Positions 5,226 through 24,325 are shown, counted from the first letter of the stretch. The stretch is DNA of 24,534 nucleotides from a virus (IMGVR_UViG_2698536676_000006); one strand, 5' to 3'. The notes: generated by a model from the sequence alone, not told the origin. Program-made: numbers and translations.

Positions 5226-5576
5226 TTACTCCCTCAGCGTGATGGTTAACTCAACATTCTGCATGGTCTGCATGACAGTGCCCGACAGCGTCACCCCGGC
5301 GCGGCCTCCCGCTTTCCAGACAACGTCAATGGCATCCAGGGCAATGCGGGGTTCCCATCGTGTCAGCGCAATCACGGCAGCACTCATGCATTGCAGACGC
5401 GTGGTGTTATTCATGGGTTCGTCAATCAAATCAGGCACAAGGCTGCCATATTCCCGTCGCATAACCCGGCTTGCCAGCGGGGTGGTCAGGATGTCCCTGA
5501 CTGACTGTTTCAGGTGCTCCATATCGTTCAGGTTTCCCGTTCCGTCCGGGTTCATTCCTGTGTAGCGGGTTGTCAC
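5226..5576 (-). CDS. Baseplate wedge protein W (P2 gpW / gp25 family)
   Basis: 116 aa, MTTRYTGMNPDG...SRVMRREYGSL...; GTG start overlaps the upstream stop (GTGA). Confidence 0.85.
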   Translation of the reverse strand: MTTRYTGMNPDGTGNLNDMEHLKQSVRDILTTPLASRVMRREYGSLVPDLIDEPMNNTTRLQCMSAAVIALTRWEPRIALDAIDVVWKAGGRAGVTLSGTVMQTMQNVELTITLRE

Positions 5577-5980
5577 TGTGGGCCTCCTGTCGAATCGCTG
5601 CCGCCTTTCACGCCACCGTGTTTATGCGTATGCACTGTAATGCCGTTTGAGGTGAAGTTGCCGCCGCTGTGCGTGATATTGCCGCTCATCTTTCCTCCTT
5701 TTGTGACGTCAAGCGTCGCCGTTCTCAGAAGGTTTGTGCATTCCACGACGGGCGTATCCAGTTTCACGCTGACGGATGCCTGTAAAGTGGCCGTTTTCAT
5801 GCCGCTGGCGCTCAGTGCGCCAGCGTCCGCGTCGTAGCGGAACACCGCGCCGTCCGGCGCGCTGATCACGATTTCTTTCAGGCTTTTGCCGGGGGCCGGA
5901 CTGGCATCACTCCACAGGCTGCCAATTATCATGGCGGTTACGGCGATCTGTGCCGTCATAACTGGTATTCGTGCGCGCAA
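5573..5980 (-). pseudogene. Baseplate spike gpV, C-terminal fragment, fused out of frame to the capsid remnant
   Basis: ISAPDGAVFRYDADAGALSASGMKTATLQ...KLDTPVVECTN...GGKMSGNITHSGGNFTSNGITVHTHKHGG resembles the C-terminal half of P2 gpV; the N-terminal half is missing. Confidence 0.7.
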
Positions 5981-6218
5981 TCGGCCCGGTGGTGTCCAGG
6001 AGAACTTTTTCGCCTTTCTGGTCAGTTACACCGATTACATTAATTCTTTTCGTAAATTCGGTACTTTCCTTTGAAGCGTTTTCAAAACGCTGTTGTACCG
6101 ATGGATTGACGGTAAATCGCGATACCAGCGCAGAAACCGGGATATTGTTAAGCGACGCCTGCTGCGTCATGTAGCAGCCCAGCTTGTTACGGGCATTATC
6201 TGACATCACCAGATTCAT
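5907..6218 (-). pseudogene. Major capsid protein gpN, N-terminal fragment (about 90 codons), junction with gpV at roughly 5930-5980
   Basis: RFTVNPSVQQRFENASKESTEFTKRINVIGVTDQKGEKVLLDTTGPIARTNTSYDGTDRR parallels the P2 gpN N-terminus; homology stops and the frame overlaps the gpV fragment, implying loss of N(3')-M-L-X-Y-K-R-S-V(5'). Confidence 0.7.
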
Positions 6219-6241
6219 AAAAAATTTGCTCCTTTGTCTTA

Positions 6242-7078
6242 TCAGAAGTCAGCCAGCTGATCGGAGGCTGCGCCCGTTGCGGTGAACCGGTTCTGTGGAT
6301 CGCCGTCCTGCGTGCGCAGTTTTTCCTTCAGTGCTGTCAGCTCTGTGGTCAGTGACGTGATTTTCTGACGGTCCTGCTTATGGCGGGCTTCCAGCACATT
6401 AAAACGGTCGATAATGTCGGCCTGTGACGTTGCGACGCCTTCCACCGCTTCCTGAATACGGGAAAAACTGGCGTCATCCGCTTTGCGGCCACGGCCAATA
6501 ATCCCCATTACGCGGTTAAACCACTGGGTGCCTTCTTCCTGGCGTTGTTCTGCCATTTCGATGATTTCAGACTCAATGGCTTCGGAGATAAGCGGCGCTT
6601 CACCCTGGATACTGTTGAACGTCATCACCGCCTGACGTTGCTGTGCCGTGAATTTCAGGCGCTCAGTGCCCAGGCTTGCCGGGGTGTCGGTCATCGCCAG
6701 CCCGACCAGATAGGCGCGCCCGTTAACGGAGAACTGCGGGTGCAGTTCGATACTGGAATAGATTTTCTTGCCGTCAGCGACAAGCTGCTTCATGCGCTCG
6801 GTCGGTTCGATTTCTGCATACAGCGCAGTACGTCCGGCCAGCGGGCCTTCCGTAATATCTTCCGTACTCAGCGCGGTGACATCGCCCATTGCGGAAAATT
6901 CGCTTGACGGGCATGGCGAGAGATAGTGCTCAACGTTCACGCGGGCAGCGTAAACATCCGGGTTGAAGTTCTCGGCGGCTTCACGCAGATGTACCGGGCT
7001 GATTTCGCGGCCATCAACAGTTGATCCGGAGACAGCCACGCGAAACTTTTTGCGGGATGTCTTTTTTTCATTAGCCAT
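6242..7078 (-). CDS. Capsid scaffolding protein (P2 gpO-like)
   Basis: MANEKKTSRKKFRVAVSGSTVDGREISP...YLVGLAMTDTPASLGTE resembles P2 gpO; ATG at 7076-7078 with GAGGGG upstream is preferred over the tool start at 7111. Confidence 0.85.
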   Translation of the reverse strand: MANEKKTSRKKFRVAVSGSTVDGREISPVHLREAAENFNPDVYAARVNVEHYLSPCPSSEFSAMGDVTALSTEDITEGPLAGRTALYAEIEPTERMKQLVADGKKIYSSIELHPQFSVNGRAYLVGLAMTDTPASLGTERLKFTAQQRQAVMTFNSIQGEAPLISEAIESEIIEMAEQRQEEGTQWFNRVMGIIGRGRKADDASFSRIQEAVEGVATSQADIIDRFNVLEARHKQDRQKITSLTTELTALKEKLRTQDGDPQNRFTATGAASDQLADF

Positions 7079-7232
7079 AGTTTTTGCCCCTCTGACTGGT
7101 TCTTCAGTCATGATGGCAAAGCGTAACAGGCTGATACAAAGGGCTTTTGTTGTAAGAAAACGGCCAGAACAGGGGGTTAAGGAGAACGGTTTCGCGCGCG
7201 GGTAATCTTCCTGTAATTACTCAGGGGGAGCA

Positions 7233-8495
7233 ATGATTCAGGACGCTTTTGTGCGCCAGCGTGCGCGGCAACTTTACTGGCAGGGTTATCCGCCCGCAGA
7301 AATATCACGTCTGATGGGAATAAACCCGAACACGATTTATGCGTGGAAAAAACGCGACCAGTGGGATGAAACGCCCCCCGTGCAGCGTGTCACGCAGTCC
7401 ATCGATGCGCGCCTCATCCAGCTTACTGAAAAACAGAATAAAACAGGCGGTGACTTTAAGGAAATAGACCTGCTGACCCGGCAGCTTAAAAAGCTGCATG
7501 ATGGCCAGCCGGATGTGATGGCCGCAGGAAAGAAAGGCCGGGCGAAAAAACTTAAAAATCATTTCACGCCGGAACAGATTGCCGCACTGCGGGAAAAAAT
7601 CATCAGCAGGCTGGAGTGGCATCAGCGGGGCTGGTTTGACTCCCTGACACTTTGCAGGGAAGCCGGGATACGTAACAGGATGATCCTGAAATCCCGACAG
7701 ATTGGGGCGACCTGGTATTTTGCACAGGAAGCTCTGCTGATGGCGCTGCGTGACGATGTGGCGCAACCTTACCAGCGTAACCAGATTTTTTTGTCTGCGT
7801 CGCGTCGTCAGGCGTTCCAGTTTAAAAGCATTATTCAGAAGGTCGCGGCTGAAGTTGATGTGGAGCTGAAAGGGGGCGATAAAATCATCCTCTCCAACGG
7901 CGCAGAGCTGCATTTTCTCGGCACTTCTGCTGCGTCGGCACAGTCCTATACGGGCAATTTTTATTTTGATGAATTTTTCTGGGTCAGTCGCTTTGCTGAA
8001 CTGCGCAAGGTGGCTGGCGCTATGGCAACCCTCAGCGGACTGCGGCGCACCTACTTCTCCACGCCATCCACCGAAACGCACGAGGCGTACGCCTACTGGA
8101 ACGGCGACCGCTGGAACGAGAAAAAGGCCTCGCATAAACGCCAGCGTTTTTCTGTGGACTGGAAAACGCTGCATAACGGGCTTATCTGCCCTGACCGGAC
8201 TTGGCGGCAAATTGTCACGCTGGAAGATGTGGTTAATCACGGCTGGAAACACACCGATATCGACGAAATTCGTGATGAAAACACCGAAGACGAGTTCCTC
8301 AATCTCTATATGTGTGAGTTTGTCCGCGAAGGGGAATCGGCATTTAACCTGAATATCCTGATTGGCTGCGGTGTTGACGGATACGACGACTGGAAAGACT
8401 GGAAACCTTTTGCTCCCCGCCCGATGGGGAATCGTCCGGTATGGATTGGGTATGACGCAAACGGCAGCAGTGGCAACGGCGACATGCCAGCTTGA
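7233..8495 (+). pseudogene. Terminase ATPase subunit (P2 gpP-like), C-terminally truncated
   Basis: 420 aa with N-terminal ...LYWQGYPPAEISRLMGINPNTIYAWKKRDQWDE; P2 gpP is about 590 aa as I recall. The ORF ends shortly after VWIGYDA, and portal Q, cos and the tin/old region expected between P and A are absent. Confidence 0.75.
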
Positions 8496-8560: not shown

Positions 8561-8670
8561 TTTACGGGATTCTGAAATCCCGTTTTTGCCTGTTTTATGC
8601 GCGCTTCATATATCGCGGCGCGTTTTTTGCTCATTTACGGGATTTGTGAATCCCGTTTCTGTCTGTTTTT
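8561..8670 (+). repeat. Two diverged direct repeats (8561-8596, 8634-8670), each an 8-bp-stem hairpin ACGGGATT-N4-AATCCCGT followed by a T-run
   Basis: Read directly: tttacgggattctgaaatcccgtttttgcctgtttt and tttacgggatttgtgaatcccgtttctgtctgttttt. Confidence 0.6.
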
Positions 8671-11428
8671 TGTTTCCACTGGTCAGGCCACCCCGCAGCA
8701 GGTCTGCTTTGCGGTGGGCGCGTTCAGTTGTTTCACTGATTCTCTGTGCGTGCTCTGCGTCGCGGATGGCGCGCAGCATGTCAGAAAGTACGGTAACGGG
8801 TGTTTTCATGGTGTTCTGGTCTTGCTGAAGTGTGGATGCCAGGCGTGCGGCGGCTTCATGGTCTGATGCCCTTAGTTGTTCCAGATAGCCGGCGACCGGG
8901 TTATGGCGGATCTCCGTGCTGCTTACGCCGTGATTACGGCTCAGGCGCTGCCAGAGCTGCGTGATTCGGCTGTCCGGGCGGGTATCCGGTTTGCGTACAA
9001 TTTCAAATCCCTGCGGTGCAATGATGCTGCCGTCAACGTACAGGCTGCCGCCCCGTAACAGGTGCTGCATCTGCTGTTCACCGATATGCAGGCCGAGAGA
9101 TTCGGCAGATTCCCGCCATTCTTTAGCGAGTAATTCGTGGTTATCAGGCAAAGGCCGCTGCTGTTTGCGGCTCTGTGTCCAGCTCTGCATTTCATCACTG
9201 CTGTTTTTTGCCTGTTTGTCACGCAGCGAACGCATCAGCGCCCGGCGTTCGTGCCGTTTCAGTGAGCGCATCCAGTCATCCACATCAACGCCGTCAGGAA
9301 GCTGCGGCCACAGTGCTGGCCGTTCTTCCGGCTGTTCTGTCCCGTTGTTGTCCGTTTCCTGTACACGGGGACAGTTATTGCCACGAGTCCAAGGGGCGGC
9401 AGGGCCGCCCTGAAGGTCAAAACCATTTTCGTGGGCGTTGTCTTCCGGTTCTGGTTTACGTCTTACCAGCTTCCAGTTATCCGGATGCGTGCACACACGG
9501 GAGGATTCCCCGATGAGTGGTGACCAGATCCCGTAAATCTGTACGCTCTGTTCGCCGTAATCGTTCAGCTCATCTGCGAGGTCGTAGGCGGTGCGAATCA
9601 GGTAGTCCTTGCGTGGAACAAGCACGCCACCCTGTTTTTCAATGTAGGTGGCAAAACACCCGGCATCGGCGGCAGCGAGTACCGCATCCATTGCATCATC
9701 TTTCAGCCGTTGCGGGCCTTCCGGATTGCGTGCCATCTGGCTGGCAAGGCGGCGCAGTTCACGCCACACCTGACGGGAGGGGATGCCAAAGAACTGGAAC
9801 TGACGGACCCGGTGAAGGCGCGCCCAGCCGATGGCGCGCTCCACGCTCTCGGCCATTGATTTTCCGGTTTCGTGGTCAACGCGTGGCTTGCCCGTTTTCG
9901 GGTCGATGCCATCCACGGCGCGGCTGTCCAGGTTCTTTCCGATGTAGGTGGCGATGTAGCTGGTTGGTGTGCCTTTTGAGCCGTCGACATACTCCGCCTT
10001 AAAACGCGGAGTTATGTCATCGCCCAGCTCGTGGCGGTCCTCCTGAATGGCAATATCGCAGACGTGGGACACGATGGTTTCAATCTCGTCCGGATGTGCA
10101 AAGACCATCATATGCCAGTGCACAGTGCCGTCATGGTGAGGCTCCACCGTGCGGATGCCATACCAGCGCAGGCCGTCGCGGTTCAGTTTTTTGCGGACCG
10201 CCGCAAAAAACGTGTTAACCAGGTAATCGCTGGAGTCGCGCATGGTGGCCCCGTTCCATTTGGGGTTCGGATGACCGTTCTCCGTTGTTGCGTGGTATTT
10301 TGACGGGCAGGTGACGGTCAGAAACACCGCTCTGTCGCCACGGGCTTCGGCCAGAAGTTCCAGTCCCTTCATGGTGGCCATCATTTCTGCCTTACGGTGA
10401 ACCGGGTTACTTACTCCCGCGTAATACACCGTCTCGAGATCAATCGTGAACCCGTCTTCATTTTCCAGCATGAAACTTTTCAGGAAATCGCGTGTTTTCT
10501 CGCGCTGTGCGCGAAACTCGCTTAACGCGTCCTGGCTCAGATAGGGGGATGTTTTTCTGGAAACCAGACAGGCGGCGCGGAGTTGTTCTTCCCGCCACTC
10601 ACAACGTAACAGCCACAGTTTGCGTTTCCACCATTCCGCACAGGTCAGGCGAAGGATTGCGCCCGGCAGCAGCTCCGTGTCCGGTTCGTTCCTCCGGTCT
10701 TTGTCTGTTGTCAGTGCGTCATAATGTGGAGGCATGGCGTGCAGGTGTAACGCCATGCGGGCCAGCATCTGATAAGCCTTCAGCGTTACATCCATGGTCA
10801 GCTCGCCATCAGTCGCGCCAAAGCCATCGCAGAGTTTTTCGAAGGTGCTGCTGAACATCGCCGCCGTCATGGTGGCCAGCGTCTGTATCTGGTGTTTGTT
10901 GAGCTGCGGCAGGTAAAGCAAATCATCCAGGCGTTCGCGTCCGGCAAGGGAGCGATAACCCGGTGTCAGCCAGCGGTGGTCGGTGCGGTCCAGACGTTCG
11001 AATATTTTGCGCAGGGTTCCGCACGCGTAGCGTTCAGCCTGCCAGCTCTTGTTGCCTTTCCGGCGATCGGCTTCCTGTTTTTTGCGCAGGAAGGAGAGGT
11101 GGCGAATAAGCGGATCGCGCAGATAGGACGGCAGCAGGCGCAGCGAGGCCATGGCTTCATCCACCGCGCCACGTGCCTGTTTTCTGGCGTCTCCTGCCAG
11201 TGTGATGGTTTTGTCCTGTTTTTCCTGTGCGTCCAGGCTTTTATTAATCAGGTTGCCCAGCGGCGTGGCGGAGAACGCCGCATCAGCCATTTCCTGGCGG
11301 CGCTCGTTCTCTGCCCGGTAGGCATCCAGCCAGGAGGAAAGCGCGGATTCAGGAGCGGGGATCCCCGTTCCTTCACGCCCCACTGCGTGGCGCGGTTGTT
11401 GCCAGTCCCTGATGTACTCTGCCGTCAT
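8606..11428 (-). CDS. Replication initiation endonuclease (P2 gpA-like, HUH rolling-circle nickase) with a C-terminal extension
   Basis: 940 aa; ...TVTCPSKYHATTENG...GIRTVEPHHDGTVHWHMMVFAHPDE... matches the P2 gpA catalytic core (HUH motif HWH). About 180 aa longer than P2 gpA (761 aa as I recall); the last codons run through the 8634-8670 hairpin. Confidence 0.85.
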   Translation of the reverse strand: MTAEYIRDWQQPRHAVGREGTGIPAPESALSSWLDAYRAENERRQEMADAAFSATPLGNLINKSLDAQEKQDKTITLAGDARKQARGAVDEAMASLRLLPSYLRDPLIRHLSFLRKKQEADRRKGNKSWQAERYACGTLRKIFERLDRTDHRWLTPGYRSLAGRERLDDLLYLPQLNKHQIQTLATMTAAMFSSTFEKLCDGFGATDGELTMDVTLKAYQMLARMALHLHAMPPHYDALTTDKDRRNEPDTELLPGAILRLTCAEWWKRKLWLLRCEWREEQLRAACLVSRKTSPYLSQDALSEFRAQREKTRDFLKSFMLENEDGFTIDLETVYYAGVSNPVHRKAEMMATMKGLELLAEARGDRAVFLTVTCPSKYHATTENGHPNPKWNGATMRDSSDYLVNTFFAAVRKKLNRDGLRWYGIRTVEPHHDGTVHWHMMVFAHPDEIETIVSHVCDIAIQEDRHELGDDITPRFKAEYVDGSKGTPTSYIATYIGKNLDSRAVDGIDPKTGKPRVDHETGKSMAESVERAIGWARLHRVRQFQFFGIPSRQVWRELRRLASQMARNPEGPQRLKDDAMDAVLAAADAGCFATYIEKQGGVLVPRKDYLIRTAYDLADELNDYGEQSVQIYGIWSPLIGESSRVCTHPDNWKLVRRKPEPEDNAHENGFDLQGGPAAPWTRGNNCPRVQETDNNGTEQPEERPALWPQLPDGVDVDDWMRSLKRHERRALMRSLRDKQAKNSSDEMQSWTQSRKQQRPLPDNHELLAKEWRESAESLGLHIGEQQMQHLLRGGSLYVDGSIIAPQGFEIVRKPDTRPDSRITQLWQRLSRNHGVSSTEIRHNPVAGYLEQLRASDHEAAARLASTLQQDQNTMKTPVTVLSDMLRAIRDAEHAQRISETTERAHRKADLLRGGLTSGNKKQTETGFTNPVNEQKTRRDI

Positions 11429-11434
11429 AGTGAT

Positions 11435-11800
11435 TTACTTCGTCATGCCATTCAGGGTGTCGCGGCAGACTGTAGCCAGCCGCTGAATTTCCAGCACGGT
11501 GTCTTCTGTGTCGGCATGGCGATGTGTGATGCGGATGCTGTCGGCAATCACATCGACGATTGCAGAGGATGGGCGCTGGTAAATGCCAATAACGGACGGG
11601 GTGCCACCTTCAATGCGGTAAAGCCTGTAATTTCCCTCGTGGCTGTCAATCATGTAGCGACCATCAATAACAATCTTTCCGTCAGCGAGCTGCGGTACAG
11701 GCAGGGATTTCAGGTACATGTCATAACGATCACGCACGCGAGCGGCAAGATCTCGTTCTGTGTTGAGCAGGTATTCAAGAAAGTCGTTGGCGAGAATCAT
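11435..11800 (-). CDS. Hypothetical early-operon protein (121 aa) directly upstream of gpA
   Basis: ATG with AGAGGA Shine-Dalgarno; 6-bp gap to the gpA start. Confidence 0.6.
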   Translation of the reverse strand: MILANDFLEYLLNTERDLAARVRDRYDMYLKSLPVPQLADGKIVIDGRYMIDSHEGNYRLYRIEGGTPSVIGIYQRPSSAIVDVIADSIRITHRHADTEDTVLEIQRLATVCRDTLNGMTK

Positions 11801-11872
11801 TGCGGCAATCCTCTTGTTACAGATGTGCGAAGGCCTCCCGCCGCAAGGTGCAGGAAAGGCCCGGAACAGGAA

Positions 11873-12103
11873 TTAATGGAGTTTGTTTTGCTGCTGGATG
11901 AGCTGTTGAAGCTCGTGCAGATCATCCGCCAGATAGCTGAAAACAGAGGCGGAATAAATGTTTGATAGTGCGTGGCTGCGCTCATGCAGCATATTGATGT
12001 GCATGATTTGCGCGACGCGTGATGCGCGGGAAAGTCTGTGGTTGATTTCAGTCTGGATGTGACGACGCTCCGCGATAGTGCGGTGCTGTTTGCGGTCTGC
12101 CAT
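11873..12103 (-). CDS. Hypothetical early-operon protein (76 aa, basic, no Cys)
   Basis: ATG at 12101-12103 with AGAGG upstream; no recognisable domain. Confidence 0.5.
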   Translation of the reverse strand: MADRKQHRTIAERRHIQTEINHRLSRASRVAQIMHINMLHERSHALSNIYSASVFSYLADDLHELQQLIQQQNKLH

Positions 12104-12425
12104 GGTGTGGCCTCTTTGCTCGGTGATAGAAATAACTCACCATCCAGAGTTGAGAATCTCGGGGTGGCGAGACGTACAGGGTTCTCAACACCGGAGAGCA
12201 AAGAATCCGGCCCGACCGAAGTCGGCCCCGTACGCCCCGCCATAATTCTGACGCGAAAAAGACGTGGCAATACAGTGCGCACAAAAAAACCGCTTGCGCG
12301 GTTATGCGCTTTGCTCTGTATCGGGTTGAGAATCCCGGCACCCGTTTTATGAGCTGCAGCGGAAATGTAACCTGACCGATTGAGGCATGGCAAGCGGTTT
12401 TTTTGTGTGTGCATGTTCTGGTTTC
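12104..12425. other. Structured non-coding gap inside the early operon: nested direct and inverted repeats; candidate ncRNA or regulatory/origin-like element
   Basis: GTTGAGAATC[T/C]CGG at about 12150 and 12325, inverted partner GTTCTCAAC at about 12175; CTTTGCTCT / AGAGCAAAG copies; 18-bp inverted repeat cacaaaaaaaccgcttgc at 12281-12298 and 12391-12408; hairpins TCTCG-N6-CGAGA, CCGGA-N9-TCCGG, GGCCCGAC-cgaa-GTCGGCC. Confidence 0.4.
12283..12310 (-). terminator. Candidate rho-independent terminator (AACCGC-gcaa-GCGGTT then TTTTTTTG on the minus strand)
   Basis: Plus strand reads caaaaaaaccgcttgcgcggtt; on the minus strand the hairpin is followed by a 7-T run. Confidence 0.5.
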
Positions 12426-12725
12426 TTACTGGTTCAGAAAAAAATCAAAAACGTTATCGATGCGTTGCAGCAGCTCTTGCTGCATTGCTTCCGGCGTTTC
12501 CGGTTCGCCAGGTGCCCCCAGCGTTGCGCAGAAATCAGCGATTTCATGATGGAGCGTGAGGCGAATGGCAGGAGCCGTGGTTCTGGCGTGCTCCAGCTGA
12601 TCCAGCAGTGCCAGCACAGCAGACGGCGAGAGCATTGCGCGAAATGCCAGTAATTTTTGAGGCGTTGCCATTCGTTGCAGGGCAAATGCCAGTTCGTGTA
12701 GCTTCTGGTGGTTGATGGTGCTCAT
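12426..12725 (-). CDS. Hypothetical protein (99 aa)
   Basis: ATG with GAAGGAAG Shine-Dalgarno; start overlaps the upstream stop (ATGA). Confidence 0.55.
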   Translation of the reverse strand: MSTINHQKLHELAFALQRMATPQKLLAFRAMLSPSAVLALLDQLEHARTTAPAIRLTLHHEIADFCATLGAPGEPETPEAMQQELLQRIDNVFDFFLNQ

Positions 12726-12988
12726 GCTCTGGCTTCCTTCAGTAGCTGGTTAAACATGTGAGTAAGTGGATTGCTACACCCGAACAGCATCGGGTTTACG
12801 TGGTAAGAAGCCTGGCCTCCTGTTTTGCGAGCGCGACCACCTGTGCTGCGGTTTGTTCTGATGACTAAGCCGCCGCGCCAAAGTCGGCGTAACTCAGCAT
12901 TAATGGCTGTGGTTGGGGTATTCAGTGCTGCGGCGATCTCTCCGCCGCTACACCCCGGATGAGTAGCGATGTAGTCCAGAATGGTCAT
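12722..12988 (-). CDS. Putative winged-helix DNA-binding protein (88 aa)
   Basis: MTILDYIATHPGCSGGEIAAALNTPTTAINAELRRLWRGGLVIR looks like an HTH / winged-helix; AGGAG Shine-Dalgarno; ATGA overlap with the upstream gene. Confidence 0.6.
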   Translation of the reverse strand: MTILDYIATHPGCSGGEIAAALNTPTTAINAELRRLWRGGLVIRTNRSTGGRARKTGGQASYHVNPMLFGCSNPLTHMFNQLLKEARA

Positions 12989-16701: not shown

Positions 16702-17703
16702 ATGTCGGTTCGTAAGATTCCATCAGGTAAATGGCTTTGCGAATGTTATCCCTACGGGGCATCGGGAAAACGCATTCGTAAACAGTTTGCGACAAAAAGT
16801 GAGGCGCTCTCTTATGAGCGCCGTTTAATGAATAGTAGAGTTGGAGACGAGTTTCAAGATGGTTCTGGTCCTCGTCTTTCTGAGTTGATTGCTCGTTGGT
16901 TTGAGATGTACGGTAAAACCTTGTCCTCTGGTGCAGAGCGCAAAGTCAAACTTGAGGCGATTTGTTCCAGGCTGGGAGATCCATTTGCTTCTCAGTTTGA
17001 CAAAAATATGTTTGCCACTTATCGGGAAAGAAGGTTATCAGGAGAGTGGAATCCCAAGGGGAAGAAAAAACTTAGTGAAGCAACCGTTAATCGCGAGCAG
17101 TCATATCTACATGCTGTTTTTGCCGAACTGAAGCGCCTTGGGGAGTGGTCTGGTGAAAACCCCCTGACTGGTATTCGCAAGTTTCGTGAGGAAGAAAAGG
17201 AACTGGCGTTTCTGTATGTAGATGAGATTGAACGCCTTCTGATTGCGTGTGATGAGTCACGGAATAAAGATTTGGGGGTTGTTGTCCGTATTGGGCTTGC
17301 GACTGGTGCTCGGTGGAGTGAAGCAGAAGGGTTAAAGCAATCTCAAGTACTGCCCGGTCGAATCACATTTGTTAAAACTAAAGGAAAGAAGAACCGCACT
17401 GTACCGATTTCACCTCAATTGCAGGCTATGCTTCCCAAAAAACGAGGAGCGCTATTTTCACCATGTTATGAGGCTTTTGACGCTGCAATTAAGAGAGCGA
17501 AGATCGAGCTTCCTGATGGGCAATTAACTCATGTGCTACGTCACACGTTTGCCAGTCATTTTATGATGCGGGGCGGAAATATTCTTGTGTTGCAAAAAAT
17601 ACTGGGGCATAGCGATATAAAAATGACTATGCGTTATGCGCATTTTGCTCCAGGTCATTTAGAGGCTGCTGTTGAATTGAACCCTTTTGACAATAGAGGG
17701 TAA
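16702..17703 (+). CDS. int: P2-type tyrosine integrase
   Basis: 333 aa; TGARWSEAEGLK, ITFVKTKGKKNRTVPIS, HVLRHTFASHFMMRGGNILVLQKILGH, YAHFAPGHL align with P2 Int as I recall it. Confidence 0.9.
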   Translation: MSVRKIPSGKWLCECYPYGASGKRIRKQFATKSEALSYERRLMNSRVGDEFQDGSGPRLSELIARWFEMYGKTLSSGAERKVKLEAICSRLGDPFASQFDKNMFATYRERRLSGEWNPKGKKKLSEATVNREQSYLHAVFAELKRLGEWSGENPLTGIRKFREEEKELAFLYVDEIERLLIACDESRNKDLGVVVRIGLATGARWSEAEGLKQSQVLPGRITFVKTKGKKNRTVPISPQLQAMLPKKRGALFSPCYEAFDAAIKRAKIELPDGQLTHVLRHTFASHFMMRGGNILVLQKILGHSDIKMTMRYAHFAPGHLEAAVELNPFDNRG

Positions 17704-18846: not shown

Positions 18847-18926
18847 TCTTCAATCCTGCCCCGTAATAAAAACACCTTCAGATATATATTATTTTCATGA
18901 TATCAATCAGATATATGAGGATAAAT

Positions 18927-20126
18927 ATGCAAAAATCCTTCCGATTCACCAATTCATCCATCAAAGCCCTTCCGGCAAACACAGATACCCGATCTACAGA
19001 GCTTGAGGTATCCGATACTGAGGTCATTGGCCTCAAATGCCTCTCAGGTCGAACGGGTAACAAACGTTTCCTCCTGCGCTACACATTCCACGGTACCAAA
19101 AAAAGTATCAGTATTGGCAGATTCCCTGAAATTGATGTGGGGACAGCCCGTCAGATAGCTCGTCGTCACAAGGAGGCGATTGCACTGGGAAATGACCCTA
19201 AGGCAGAACGCGATAATTATCGTGCTATGCCAACGCTTAGTGAGTTTTTTCACCAGACCTATGTTCCGTTCATCAAACGCCATAAAAAGTCCTGGGATAA
19301 GGATGTTCAGCGTTTCACGCAATACATTGAACCTTGTCTGGGGAAGATACGTTACTGTGACCTTCGGGCCCGGGAAATCCAGCAGGTGCTTTTCGACATG
19401 CTTGAGGGTCGTATTCACGGGCAGCAATATGCGCCGTCTACCTGTAACAGAGCCCTTGCTATTCTGAAAACGATGGGGCGTTATGCGTTGCGACAGGATG
19501 TGCTGGAAAAGAATGAAGCCGATAAGATCCCTTTACTGAAAGAGAATAATCAGCGGACGCGCTTTTTTGATGCTGATGAGATCAGGCGCATTCTTGACGC
19601 TGCTACCCAATATCCCAACAAAGCTGCCGGGGGATTGATAGCCATGTTGTTGTTAACCGGTACACGCAAAACAGAAATGCTTAATGTCAGGCATGAACAT
19701 ATCGACCGGGCCAATCGTACTCTGTTCATTCCTTATACAAAAAATGGTCGCAGTCGGACGGTATATCTAAGCGATGCCGCATTATCGATTATTGATGCTA
19801 TCCCACGAGTTGGCAGTAATCCGTATCTGTTCGCCATTAAGGATAATGGCAAACCGATATCGGAACCCCGATGGGCATATGAAAAAATACTGGCACAGTG
19901 CGGTATAGACAAGAATGAAGTCTGTTTTCACACCACACGTCATTCTGTTGCCTCTTTACTGGTTTCGAGTGGTCAATTCAGCCTGTATGACGTTAAAGCC
20001 CAACTGGCGCATGCCAGTATTCAGAGTACAGAACGTTACGCGAAATTAACACCGGAACGTATGCGTCAGACAGGGCAGGGAGTGACTGACCTGCTTCTGA
20101 ATACTGCGGCTACGAAGCAGATGTGA
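18927..20126 (+). CDS. int: P4-family tyrosine integrase (genomic-island type)
   Basis: N-terminal arm-binding domain (...GLKCLSGRTGNKRFLLRYTFHGTKKSISIGRFPEIDVGTARQIARRHKEAIALGNDPKA) and catalytic region (...TRHSVASLL...ERYAKL); ATG at 18927 with GAGG Shine-Dalgarno preferred over tool start 18897. Confidence 0.85.
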   Translation: MQKSFRFTNSSIKALPANTDTRSTELEVSDTEVIGLKCLSGRTGNKRFLLRYTFHGTKKSISIGRFPEIDVGTARQIARRHKEAIALGNDPKAERDNYRAMPTLSEFFHQTYVPFIKRHKKSWDKDVQRFTQYIEPCLGKIRYCDLRAREIQQVLFDMLEGRIHGQQYAPSTCNRALAILKTMGRYALRQDVLEKNEADKIPLLKENNQRTRFFDADEIRRILDAATQYPNKAAGGLIAMLLLTGTRKTEMLNVRHEHIDRANRTLFIPYTKNGRSRTVYLSDAALSIIDAIPRVGSNPYLFAIKDNGKPISEPRWAYEKILAQCGIDKNEVCFHTTRHSVASLLVSSGQFSLYDVKAQLAHASIQSTERYAKLTPERMRQTGQGVTDLLLNTAATKQM

Positions 20127-22542: not shown

Positions 22543-23361
22543 CTACTCAAATGATATTAATTTAGGTGCGACAGTGTTTTTATGATGTGTTGAATTTGCA
22601 AGATTAATAATATCATGAAATGATTTCATGTCGTCGTCAGTGATTTCTAGGGCTGGATCAGCTAAATCGGCACAGGTAACATTTAACCAGTGTGTTAATG
22701 AATCAATCCTGTTTGAAGTAATATATTCAGTGTGACCAATATTCCACTTCCAGTTGATTATCCGAGCAGGTCTGAATCTCACCTCCCGAACCCCAATTGG
22801 CGTTACTGACTCTACGAGAGGGTATATCGTGTTAAGTACTTTATCATGTTCACTGTAGATATTTAAATGCCCCATTTTTGAACCGTAAGCCATTTTCATT
22901 ATGTTCTCTGTATAACTTGTTATTGGGGTGGCTCCGGCCATAGAGATTGTTAAGAGAATATTATCATTTTTAATATAGGGTAATGTATTGTTTATTAATC
23001 GAGTCCCTAAAGAATGACCCATTATGATCACATTACGCTTTTCTTTAACGTATATCTCGTTTATTACGTGTGCTAATTTTTCTCTGTTATTAACTGCTGC
23101 TTTCGTTGCATTATACCAGGCCTGACGCGCTTTAAATGGAATGGAGATTGATGACAATAAAGGAGATGTTCTCAGGGGGAAGAGAGTATATAACCCCCAC
23201 TTGTTCGCTATGTCAGAACTTAATATGGATAGTAGATTTGCCGATTCCCATTTATAGTATCTGACATCAAGGCCACACCCTGCTTTAATTCGGTTAAACC
23301 ATGATATATCATTTTCGGTCAGAAACCCTGATACAACAAGAAGAACCGGGCATTTTTTCAT
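22543..23361 (-). CDS. Alpha/beta-hydrolase-fold serine hydrolase (esterase/lipase-like), candidate effector
   Basis: 272 aa; IIMGHSLGTRL carries a G-x-S-x-G nucleophile elbow; GGAG Shine-Dalgarno; AT-rich. Confidence 0.7.
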   Translation of the reverse strand: MKKCPVLLVVSGFLTENDISWFNRIKAGCGLDVRYYKWESANLLSILSSDIANKWGLYTLFPLRTSPLLSSISIPFKARQAWYNATKAAVNNREKLAHVINEIYVKEKRNVIIMGHSLGTRLINNTLPYIKNDNILLTISMAGATPITSYTENIMKMAYGSKMGHLNIYSEHDKVLNTIYPLVESVTPIGVREVRFRPARIINWKWNIGHTEYITSNRIDSLTHWLNVTCADLADPALEITDDDMKSFHDIINLANSTHHKNTVAPKLISFE

Positions 23362-23422: not shown

Positions 23423-24325
23423 TTACGGGGCGTTACTTGGCTGGGTGTAACGTTTCAGTGCGGATTGTATATCTTCAGCAAGTTGTTGACGGATTGAGGC
23501 CGGTTGTATTACTTCGACATCCGGTATCCAGTATTTCATTAAAGGCATTATCTGATCTGTGTGTGTTACACGTGATATCACCAGTAAATCGCCAGACCGG
23601 GAAGTATGAATTATTTCCTGTCCTGGCAATAGATGACGGTGGGTAAACCACGGAGCAACATGTGCGGAAACTGAAATAAGAGCTTCGATAAGGTCTTCGC
23701 TATACCAGATACCATCTGTCTTTTCTATTTTTTCATTAATTTCGGGGATTATCCTGAAAGAGATATTACTCATGCAAACGTCTTTGACAGATGAGATAAC
23801 AAAGCTTTTTAATGTACTGTCATGGGCGGCAGCGAGATACCACAATCCGTTGTCATTAACCAGTCTGTATGGCTCAACAGCCCGAAACTCTTTATCTTTG
23901 TAATTAAAATTTACTTTCTTCTGTGACAGGATGGCATCGGATAATACATTCAGAATTGACATGAATGATCCGCAGTTTTCGTATGGACGTTGTTTTATCA
24001 GAAACGGGTTGTTTTTCGTGTTACCTAACAAAATACTCAGTAGTCTGTCATCCCAGCGAGGGAACAGCCCTTCAATACCCAGGATGCGCGTGAAATGACG
24101 TAAATCAGCATTGCTGCGTTGACCGAGAACACCGTCAGACAGGCGATAGCGACCATTTTGTCGAATCAGATTAAGATAGGACAGGCGCTGAGTAAGATCA
24201 CGACGGATAGTTTTTTCGCAAACGTTAAATTCCTCAGATAACTCCCGGACGGCTAGTGACTCACCATTGTTCAGGCGAGTTAATATCAATCCGAGTCGAT
24301 ATCCAAGTTTATCGTGCTTACCCAT
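23423..24325 (-). CDS. WYL-domain transcriptional regulator (HTH-WYL architecture, BrxR/CapW-like)
   Basis: 300 aa; N-terminal HTH ([35 protein letters not shown]), central LWYL motif ([12 protein letters not shown]); ATG lies 5 bp from the IS1 end. Confidence 0.75.

Follow-up and report, generated by a model that had tools for sequence, protein, structure and literature searches.

The DNA analyzed here (the window) is a 24,534-nt stretch from a virus (IMGVR_UViG_2698536676_000006) that represents a P88-like (Xuanwuvirus, P2-family) prophage of E. coli. Its early switch lies at ~15.2 kb, where a 68-aa ORF heads a minus-strand operon that diverges from a 146-aa repressor-like gene. Because this ORF heads the minus-strand operon, the gap between the 99-aa ORF and the 76-aa gene falls within the early operon, as the initial annotation had placed it, and the minus strand is the coding strand of every gene surrounding the gap (Table 1). 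Together with its flanks, the gap is 86–87% identical to P88-type phages. The gap alone (≥80% coverage) is found in 1,102 of 5,426 complete E. coli genomes (~20%). Among the RefSeq E. coli matches listed, no annotated feature lies under it, though both RNAs described below pass the Rfam gathering scores. Other records carry this stretch either as an "ash family protein" or as a pseudogene "similar to ash family protein."

Table 1. Features of the gap and its surroundings, in window coordinates
Feature	Position	Strand	Description
88-aa winged-helix protein	12988..12722	-	Upstream neighbor in the early operon
99-aa ORF	12725..12426	-	Its stop borders the gap upstream
Gap	12425..12104	-	Exact interval from the stop of the 99-aa ORF to the start of the 76-aa ORF
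205-codon ORF	11797..12414	-	"Ash family," P4 eta-like; runs across both RNAs and, in another frame, the 76-aa gene
Upstream arm of the 18-nt repeat, CACAAAAAAACCGCUUGC	12390..12407	-	A-tract in UP-element position; overlaps the -35 hexamer TTGCCA
Candidate sigma-70-like promoter	12364..12393	-	TTGCCA-18-TACATT, from a consensus scan; predicted IsrK start ~12357
IsrK-type small RNA (P4 seqA counterpart)	12283..12357	-	Two hairpins and intrinsic terminator; holds a1 and b1
a1 target, UUCUCAAC	12325..12332	-	Loop of IsrK hairpin 2; complementary to C4 a'
b1 target, AGAGCAAAG	12309..12317	-	Single-stranded IsrK linker; complementary to C4 b'
IsrK intrinsic terminator	12281..12303	-	AACCGC-GCAA-GCGGUU then U7; detected by scan
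C4-type antisense RNA (P1/P7 c4, P4 CI counterpart)	12160..12247	-	Two hairpins within a 17-bp closing stem
b' recognition loop of C4, UUCUUUGCUCU	12195..12205	-	Complementary to b1 and b2
a' recognition segment of C4, GUUGAGAA	12182..12189	-	Complementary to a1 and a2
a2 target, UUCUCAAC	12149..12156	-	Directly 3' of C4
b2 target, GAGCAAAGAG	12112..12121	-	Overlaps the Shine-Dalgarno AAGAGG (12116..12111) of the 76-aa gene
76-aa gene	11873..12103	-	P4 epsilon homologue; AUG at 12103
121-aa protein	11800..11435	-	phrog_3237, no assigned function; same operon, downstream
940-aa P2-type replication protein A	11428..8606	-	Same operon; with the 121-aa gene it makes up the downstream stretch 8606..11800

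The 76-aa protein matches the Pfam family of the P4 epsilon "derepression protein" (PF25738, 34.2 bits against a cut-off of 27, E = 2e-8) and is 30% identical to P4 epsilon by BLASTP (E = 2e-10). By sequence, the gene is thus a homologue of the P4 epsilon helper-derepression gene, and its family membership predicts an anti-repressor role. Relatives with a nearly identical epsilon-like gene carry differing repressors (a 146-aa protein of the phrog_8 type here, a 113-aa HTH protein in locus L001), so that the phage's own repressor may not be its target. The product of the 121-aa ORF that follows has no significant similarity to P4 ORF151.

Elsewhere in the window, the prophage shows signs of being defective. 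The gene for the large terminase (7233..8495, plus strand) breaks off after 420 aa, adjoining the end of gene A, and of the major capsid gene only a 103-aa stub is left (5907..6218, covering Pfam positions 4–82 of 327), directly followed by the C-terminal spike/apex part only of gpV (5573..5980); since the capsid stub joins a partial gpV, the genes usually found between capsid and baseplate are missing (window 5573–8495). A further tyrosine integrase, whose arm-DNA-binding domain is of the P4 type (18897–20126), lies 1.2 kb past the prophage's own integrase (16702–17703), which suggests that another element integrated in tandem; no second C4 or isrK match was found for this putative element. 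At the right end of the window, a DeoR-type regulator with a WYL/WCX domain (23423..24325) sits beside a DUF726/lipase-like protein (22543..23361), and the two could form a defense-island-type pair unrelated to the gap.

Two structured RNAs and their recognition segments

The initial annotation described the gap as rich in nested repeats and hairpins with an exact 18-nt inverted repeat, and all of these are present, far above chance. The motif GTTGAGAAYC occurs three times in the 24.5-kb window, every time within the gap, where 0.14 copies are expected, and CTTTGCTC is likewise found in three copies in the gap. The minus-strand RNA of the gap folds far better than its shuffles (z = -4.6). A search of the whole window with Rfam models at curated thresholds, which the initial annotation had recommended together with RNA folding, returned exactly two matches, both full length and both on the minus strand of the gap; no tRNA or tmRNA was found. 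The suspicion that the gap is more than spacer DNA and contains a small RNA is therefore borne out twice over: two RNA genes lie there, each matching a curated Rfam family from end to end.

The upstream element is an isrK RNA (RF01394, 59.5 bits against a gathering score of 50, model positions 1–77 of 77). A match to c4-a1b1 (RF03163) was considered for the same element and rejected, as it scores only 11.6 bits against a gathering score of 46.7 and isrK fits instead; on P4, the c4-a1b1 model scores 44.1 bits. A minus-strand terminator had been proposed in one copy of the 18-nt repeat, and positions 12303..12288 with the following U-tract do score as an intrinsic terminator, found by a terminator scan independently of the Rfam model. 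Its stem is invariant in 35 relatives. The candidate promoter ahead of the element matches the consensus at 9 of 12 positions, with both hexamers invariant in the same relatives, and on sequence grounds is the putative counterpart of P4 PLE. A second promoter-like site (TTGCCA-17-AATTAT, 12270..12242) was discarded: its -35 reads TCGCCA in many relatives and its start would fall inside the C4 stem.

The downstream element is a C4 RNA (RF01695, 78.5 bits against a gathering score of 45, model positions 1–87 of 87). Its minimum free energy (MFE) fold is the Rfam consensus (-47.6 kcal/mol, z = -4.9), with a long closing stem that encloses two hairpins and leaves the b' loop and the a' segment unpaired. 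In 35 relatives its helices are 100% paired, with four compensatory pairs.

The motifs repeated in the gap are the C4 recognition segments a' and b' together with their targets. Segments a' and b' show exact complementarity of 8–10 nt to a1/b1 and to a2/b2, at all four sites, and every motif copy sits in a loop or single-stranded part of the two RNA families. Citron and Schuster reportedly described such an arrangement for P1/P7 in 1990, with a'/b' of c4 complementary to a1/b1 upstream and a2/b2 downstream. Here, b2 covers the Shine-Dalgarno of the epsilon-like gene, which lies 7 nt ahead of its AUG, and in the predicted fold of the read-through transcript this Shine-Dalgarno is sequestered by the b'/a' region of C4. 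Judged on sequence, the cassette has the features expected of C4 and of isrK, with a candidate promoter ahead of the latter. Read along the minus strand, it thus comprises a promoter-like site, a predicted IsrK RNA with a1, b1 and terminator, a predicted C4 RNA with b' and a', then a2, and b2 on the Shine-Dalgarno of the epsilon-like gene, followed by the 121-aa gene and gene A.

Covariation of the recognition segments among related phages

Retrieval with the 76-aa protein gave 82 related loci, whose upstream regions comprise 45 distinct sequences, and we aligned 35 of these; a search of genome contigs with the same protein gave only two loci. One of the retrieved loci (L003, NZ_JBQPOM010000071.1) is labeled Vagococcus sp. 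and carries this enterobacterial P88-like module at 86% identity, probably through contamination or a mislabeled assembly.

The backbone of the alignment is almost invariant, and variation is concentrated in six patches, which are a1, b1, b', a', a2 and b2. Between C4 and a2/b2, 94.8% of cells are paired and nine pairs have changed on both sides, giving a covariation score of 0.600 against at most 0.155 for slid controls, with none of 500 shuffles as high. C4 and a1/b1 behave alike, with 96.1% paired, ten pairs altered on both sides and a score of 0.655, where controls reach at most 0.167. Taken singly, b1 is 100% paired across the 35 sequences with six of nine pairs changed on both sides, while b2 is 97% paired with five such pairs and a duplex energy of -14.3 kcal/mol. 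For the helices inside C4 and IsrK, pairing is 96%, and four pairs are compensatory. The initial annotation would have been undermined by a structure that is not conserved in related prophages; instead, the structure is conserved and its recognition sites co-vary.

In total, five a-types and nine b-types make up 13 combinations; within each, the three copies always match, and a given a-type can be found with different b-types. Summed duplex energies average -24.7 kcal/mol for cognate C4-target combinations and -12.0 kcal/mol for non-cognate ones. As these relatives are close (83–100% identity) and a/b types are inherited in blocks, the cell counts exaggerate how many events were independent, although reassortment into 13 combinations argues for several. 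In the P1/P7 system, heteroimmune relatives show matched changes in their a/b segments, and the c4 RNA represses an antirepressor-type function. The co-variation found here is the signature of heteroimmunity known from P1/P7, and argues that the pairings are functional and that diversifying pressure acts on their specificity. The exact C4 loop sequence of the window (its a'/b' type) is present in 39 IMG/VR contigs, all of them P88-like, and thus gives no sign of a satellite sharing this specificity.

The initial annotation had also raised iteron-like binding sites. Short motifs that recur in direct and inverted orientation beside a replication gene do recall iterons, or sites bound by some other protein such as replication protein A or a repressor. 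Yet the motif sequences change freely among relatives while the complementarity of the three copies is always kept, whereas a protein site would keep its sequence, and all copies lie in loops or single-stranded parts of two recognized RNA families. What the repeats preserve is RNA-RNA complementarity, and we consider the binding-site reading extremely improbable.

We propose, with a probability of roughly 85%, that the gap constitutes an antisense-RNA immunity cassette of the P1 c4/P4 CI type, carried on the minus strand in a P88-like early operon. Given that this prophage is defective, the cassette may be idle in this window, and one could see in it an inactive relic of a decaying element, as the truncated terminase and the capsid stub fused to a partial spike gene would suggest. 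We hold this to be unlikely: every element of the cassette is intact, the surrounding early-region ORFs are uninterrupted, and copies are identical in several genomes and 95–100% identical in hundreds. Immunity functions are, moreover, typically the last to disappear from defective prophages.

Proposed circuit and passage through the terminator

Beyond sequence, structure and covariation, the behavior of the antisense cassette is drawn by analogy with its known counterparts. The internal promoter would fire constitutively, and most transcripts would end at the IsrK terminator to yield a short IsrK RNA. Transcripts that read through would be processed into a stable C4 RNA, whose a'/b' segments would pair with a2/b2, in trans or in cis before processing, and mask the ribosome-binding site of the epsilon-like gene. 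Left untranslated, this message would probably terminate ahead of gene A. Pairing of C4 with a1/b1 in IsrK may feed back on termination, as with P4 seqA, and free IsrK could titrate C4, as shown for Gifsy-1. The initial annotation had suggested a conditional terminator; the terminator is there, as the counterpart of the conditional terminator of P4 (PMC10111431), and its conditionality in this operon would follow by analogy.

In P4, use of the terminator depends on the immunity RNA and on translation from the upstream promoter, within a logic that links eta, an internal promoter and translational read-through: eta is translated only when transcription begins at an upstream promoter, in coupling with the gene before it, and translating it keeps transcription from terminating (PMC10111431). 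A frame of this kind is also found here. The gap was initially described as having no convincing ORF, which is correct in that no amino-acid constraint is apparent, but a 205-codon ORF runs through its whole length. Its ATG (12414) comes 11 nt past the 99-aa stop codon and precedes the -35 hexamer (12393), and its end forms an ATGA overlap with the start of the 121-aa gene. It therefore has the arrangement of P4 eta, with a start upstream of the internal promoter and near the preceding stop and a frame that passes through both RNAs.

The frame is open in 78 of 83 loci, and an in-frame ATG is provided in all five of the different upstream contexts. Indels within it are compensated (+1/-1, +1/+2, +3), and it is stop-free in 38 of 42 distinct sequences, whereas the other two frames gain and lose stops. 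Its C-terminal 100 codons (11797–12103) are open in all 44 distinct relatives. No significant similarity was found between this ORF and the P4 "cI" ORF.

These properties could mean that the region is simply a protein-coding gene for a 205-aa "Ash family protein" and that its RNA-like features are incidental. The ORF is long, its length is conserved down to ~72% identity, proteins of 205–206 aa are widely annotated at NCBI as "ash family protein," and PHROG families 995/6928/821 match it with E ~1e-14. However, the Pfam model Phage_ASH stays below threshold (19.2 against 26 bits), and pN/pS is 1.02 in the gap, which rules out a constrained protein. In the overlap with the 76-aa gene, pN/pS rises to 1.42, against 0.42 for the 76-aa frame itself, so that any function there would lie in translation or coupling and not in the peptide. 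Coding would also leave the two Rfam matches and the three-way compensatory changes unexplained, while similarity to a protein family is what one would expect from the translation of any conserved RNA gene. We therefore regard a conventional protein gene as a highly improbable account of the region. Regulatory translation of the ORF would be compatible with the antisense cassette: the frame is kept open without protein constraint, which matches the description of P4 eta, and a pN/pS of ~1 is compatible with translation of the ORF mattering more than its product.

By analogy with eta, lytic growth would bypass the cassette as follows. Transcripts from the early promoter would include the AUG at 12414, and ribosomes that translate the ORF across the two RNAs would suppress termination and C4 pairing alike. 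With such a bypass, the early operon could be transcribed into gene A despite the strong terminator midway along it.

The 18-nt inverted repeat, which the initial annotation had singled out, could provide a further route. It is exact in the window (12280–12297 and 12390–12407, with 92 nt between the arms), and no such match arose in 100 shuffles. It is also peculiar to this clade: it is absent from the P4 and Stx-phage modules, and in 32 of 35 relatives one pair is mismatched. On the downstream side, the repeat takes in the IsrK terminator's loop and 3' stem together with its U-tract. Only transcripts from upstream contain the upstream arm, which precedes the predicted IsrK start; a scan for a plus-strand terminator at this arm found no hairpin. 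The arm is invariant in relatives, even when the upstream genes differ, and it is the exact junction of differing upstream cargo, which points to a hotspot for cargo exchange. Many relatives (L002, L007, L032, L039, L049, L050 and others) have one or more extra genes between the 99-aa homologue and the module, ~0.7–1.1 kb upstream; in Citrobacter phage Shae_phiSM, the extra gene is annotated as "DNA binding protein."

As an addition to the cassette and not a replacement for it, the repeat may act as an antiterminator: the upstream arm would pair with the 3' half of the terminator and its U-tract, and only transcripts from the internal promoter would terminate. The complementarity is exact and non-random, and the MFE fold of a long upstream transcript forms the 18-bp helix and loses the terminator, which makes such a role plausible. 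The position of the arm, its invariance amid differing upstream genes, and the need of an operon that reaches gene A to pass a strong terminator all fit as well. On the other side, no covariation of the helix was seen in the 35 relatives, as 16 of its 18 pairs never vary, and its absence from P4 and Stx-phage modules speaks against a conserved core feature. Conservation of the arm could be explained by the UP-element-like A-tract and -35 hexamer alone, a ribosome on the 205-codon ORF would unwind the helix, and co-transcriptional folding favors the local hairpin. We thus regard an antiterminator helix as a doubtful, lineage-specific addition to the cassette.

Relation to known immunity systems

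Barquist et al. (PMC3632133) equated IsrK and C4 with P4 seqA and CI. The immunity region of P4 reads PLE, seqA/t1, CI RNA, seqC, kil/eta, epsilon and, further on, alpha, and the locus described here is reminiscent of it. Both Rfam families occur in the same order in P4, where the C4 model matches CI and the isrK model matches seqA (60.8 bits). In both loci, a promoter-like site directly precedes the IsrK/seqA element, an intrinsic terminator separates the a1/b1 sites from the antisense RNA, and the downstream b site lies on the Shine-Dalgarno of the first translated gene (UUCACAGGAGG before kil in P4). Both also share an ORF that begins before the internal promoter and runs through the RNAs, and an epsilon-family gene followed by a replication gene. 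The two differ in that the host element here is a P2-family phage with gpA, tail and capsid genes and not a satellite, in that the first controlled gene is the epsilon homologue here and kil in P4, and in that the spanning ORF here shares DNA with the epsilon homologue in a different frame and meets the next gene in an ATGA. The spacing from IsrK to C4 is ~35 nt here and ~107 nt in P4, and the 18-nt repeat is found here but not in P4.

In sequence, the RNAs are closer to those of Stx lambdoid phages (~70% blastn match) than to those of P4. A Stx phage likewise carries an isrK and C4 pair upstream of a Rha-family regulator gene, with CAAUCAAGGAGG before that gene. The pair also occurs in other P88-like loci. 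The immI region of P1/P7 (c4, icd, ant), where the control of ant by c4 has been summarized (PMC7313666), shares with the cassette the same Rfam family and the layout of a'/b' against a1/b1 and a2/b2. It differs in its downstream genes, which are Icd/Ant there and epsilon-like here, and in its upstream element, which here is isrK and not c4-a1b1; the setting here is a P2-type early operon that precedes a replication gene.

The cassette also resembles the isrK-orf45/STnc1160-anrP locus of Gifsy-1 in Salmonella, where IsrK relieves the translational silence of an antirepressor operon and, as free RNA, activates in trans (PMC4825925). IsrK of Gifsy-1 ends at its own terminator, as predicted here; the read-through message is silent because its ribosome-binding site is sequestered by an IsrK-complementary region, and the predicted fold here is alike, resembling the silent "structure A" of the Gifsy-1 message (PMC4825925). 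A processed, stable RNA lies downstream of IsrK in Gifsy-1, and the controlled gene is antirepressor-like, comparable to C4 and the epsilon-like gene here. Unlike the present element, the Gifsy-1 prophage is lambdoid; its locus yields AnrP, followed by the antiterminator AntQ (PMC4825925).

The system, its logic and its detection by both Rfam models are already published. The cassette is a new copy and leaves the understanding of how c4/CI systems operate unchanged; our search of the literature on C4/IsrK in P88-like or Xuanwuvirus phages found nothing specific. What it does provide is an identity for an unannotated 320-bp gap in about one fifth of complete E. coli genomes, now resolved into two named regulatory RNAs with defined targets, and for the "Ash family protein" annotation at this gap, which is largely the translation of an RNA locus. 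The 13 matched a/b combinations in near-identical phages also amount to a natural experiment on RNA-based heteroimmunity and offer a source of orthogonal antisense/target pairs.

As the a and b sequences set specificity, the cassette would confer a second, RNA-based superinfection immunity that differs among near-identical phages. We tentatively suggest that P88-like phages, which belong to the P2 family and are of the P4 helper type, have a two-tier immunity in which a protein repressor at the early switch is combined with an interchangeable RNA cassette. The a/b segments of this cassette would reassort independently, with at least 13 combinations, and it would gate an epsilon-type anti-repressor together with the replication gene. 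Bypass would occur through the "meaningless" open 205-codon ORF, aided in this lineage by the long-range antiterminator helix of 18 nt. RNA control of an epsilon-type anti-repressor and of replication in P88-like phages, as suggested here, bears on prophage induction and on helper-satellite interplay. If this is true, helpers and satellites share one immunity logic, and cross-regulation between them may be possible through matching a/b types.
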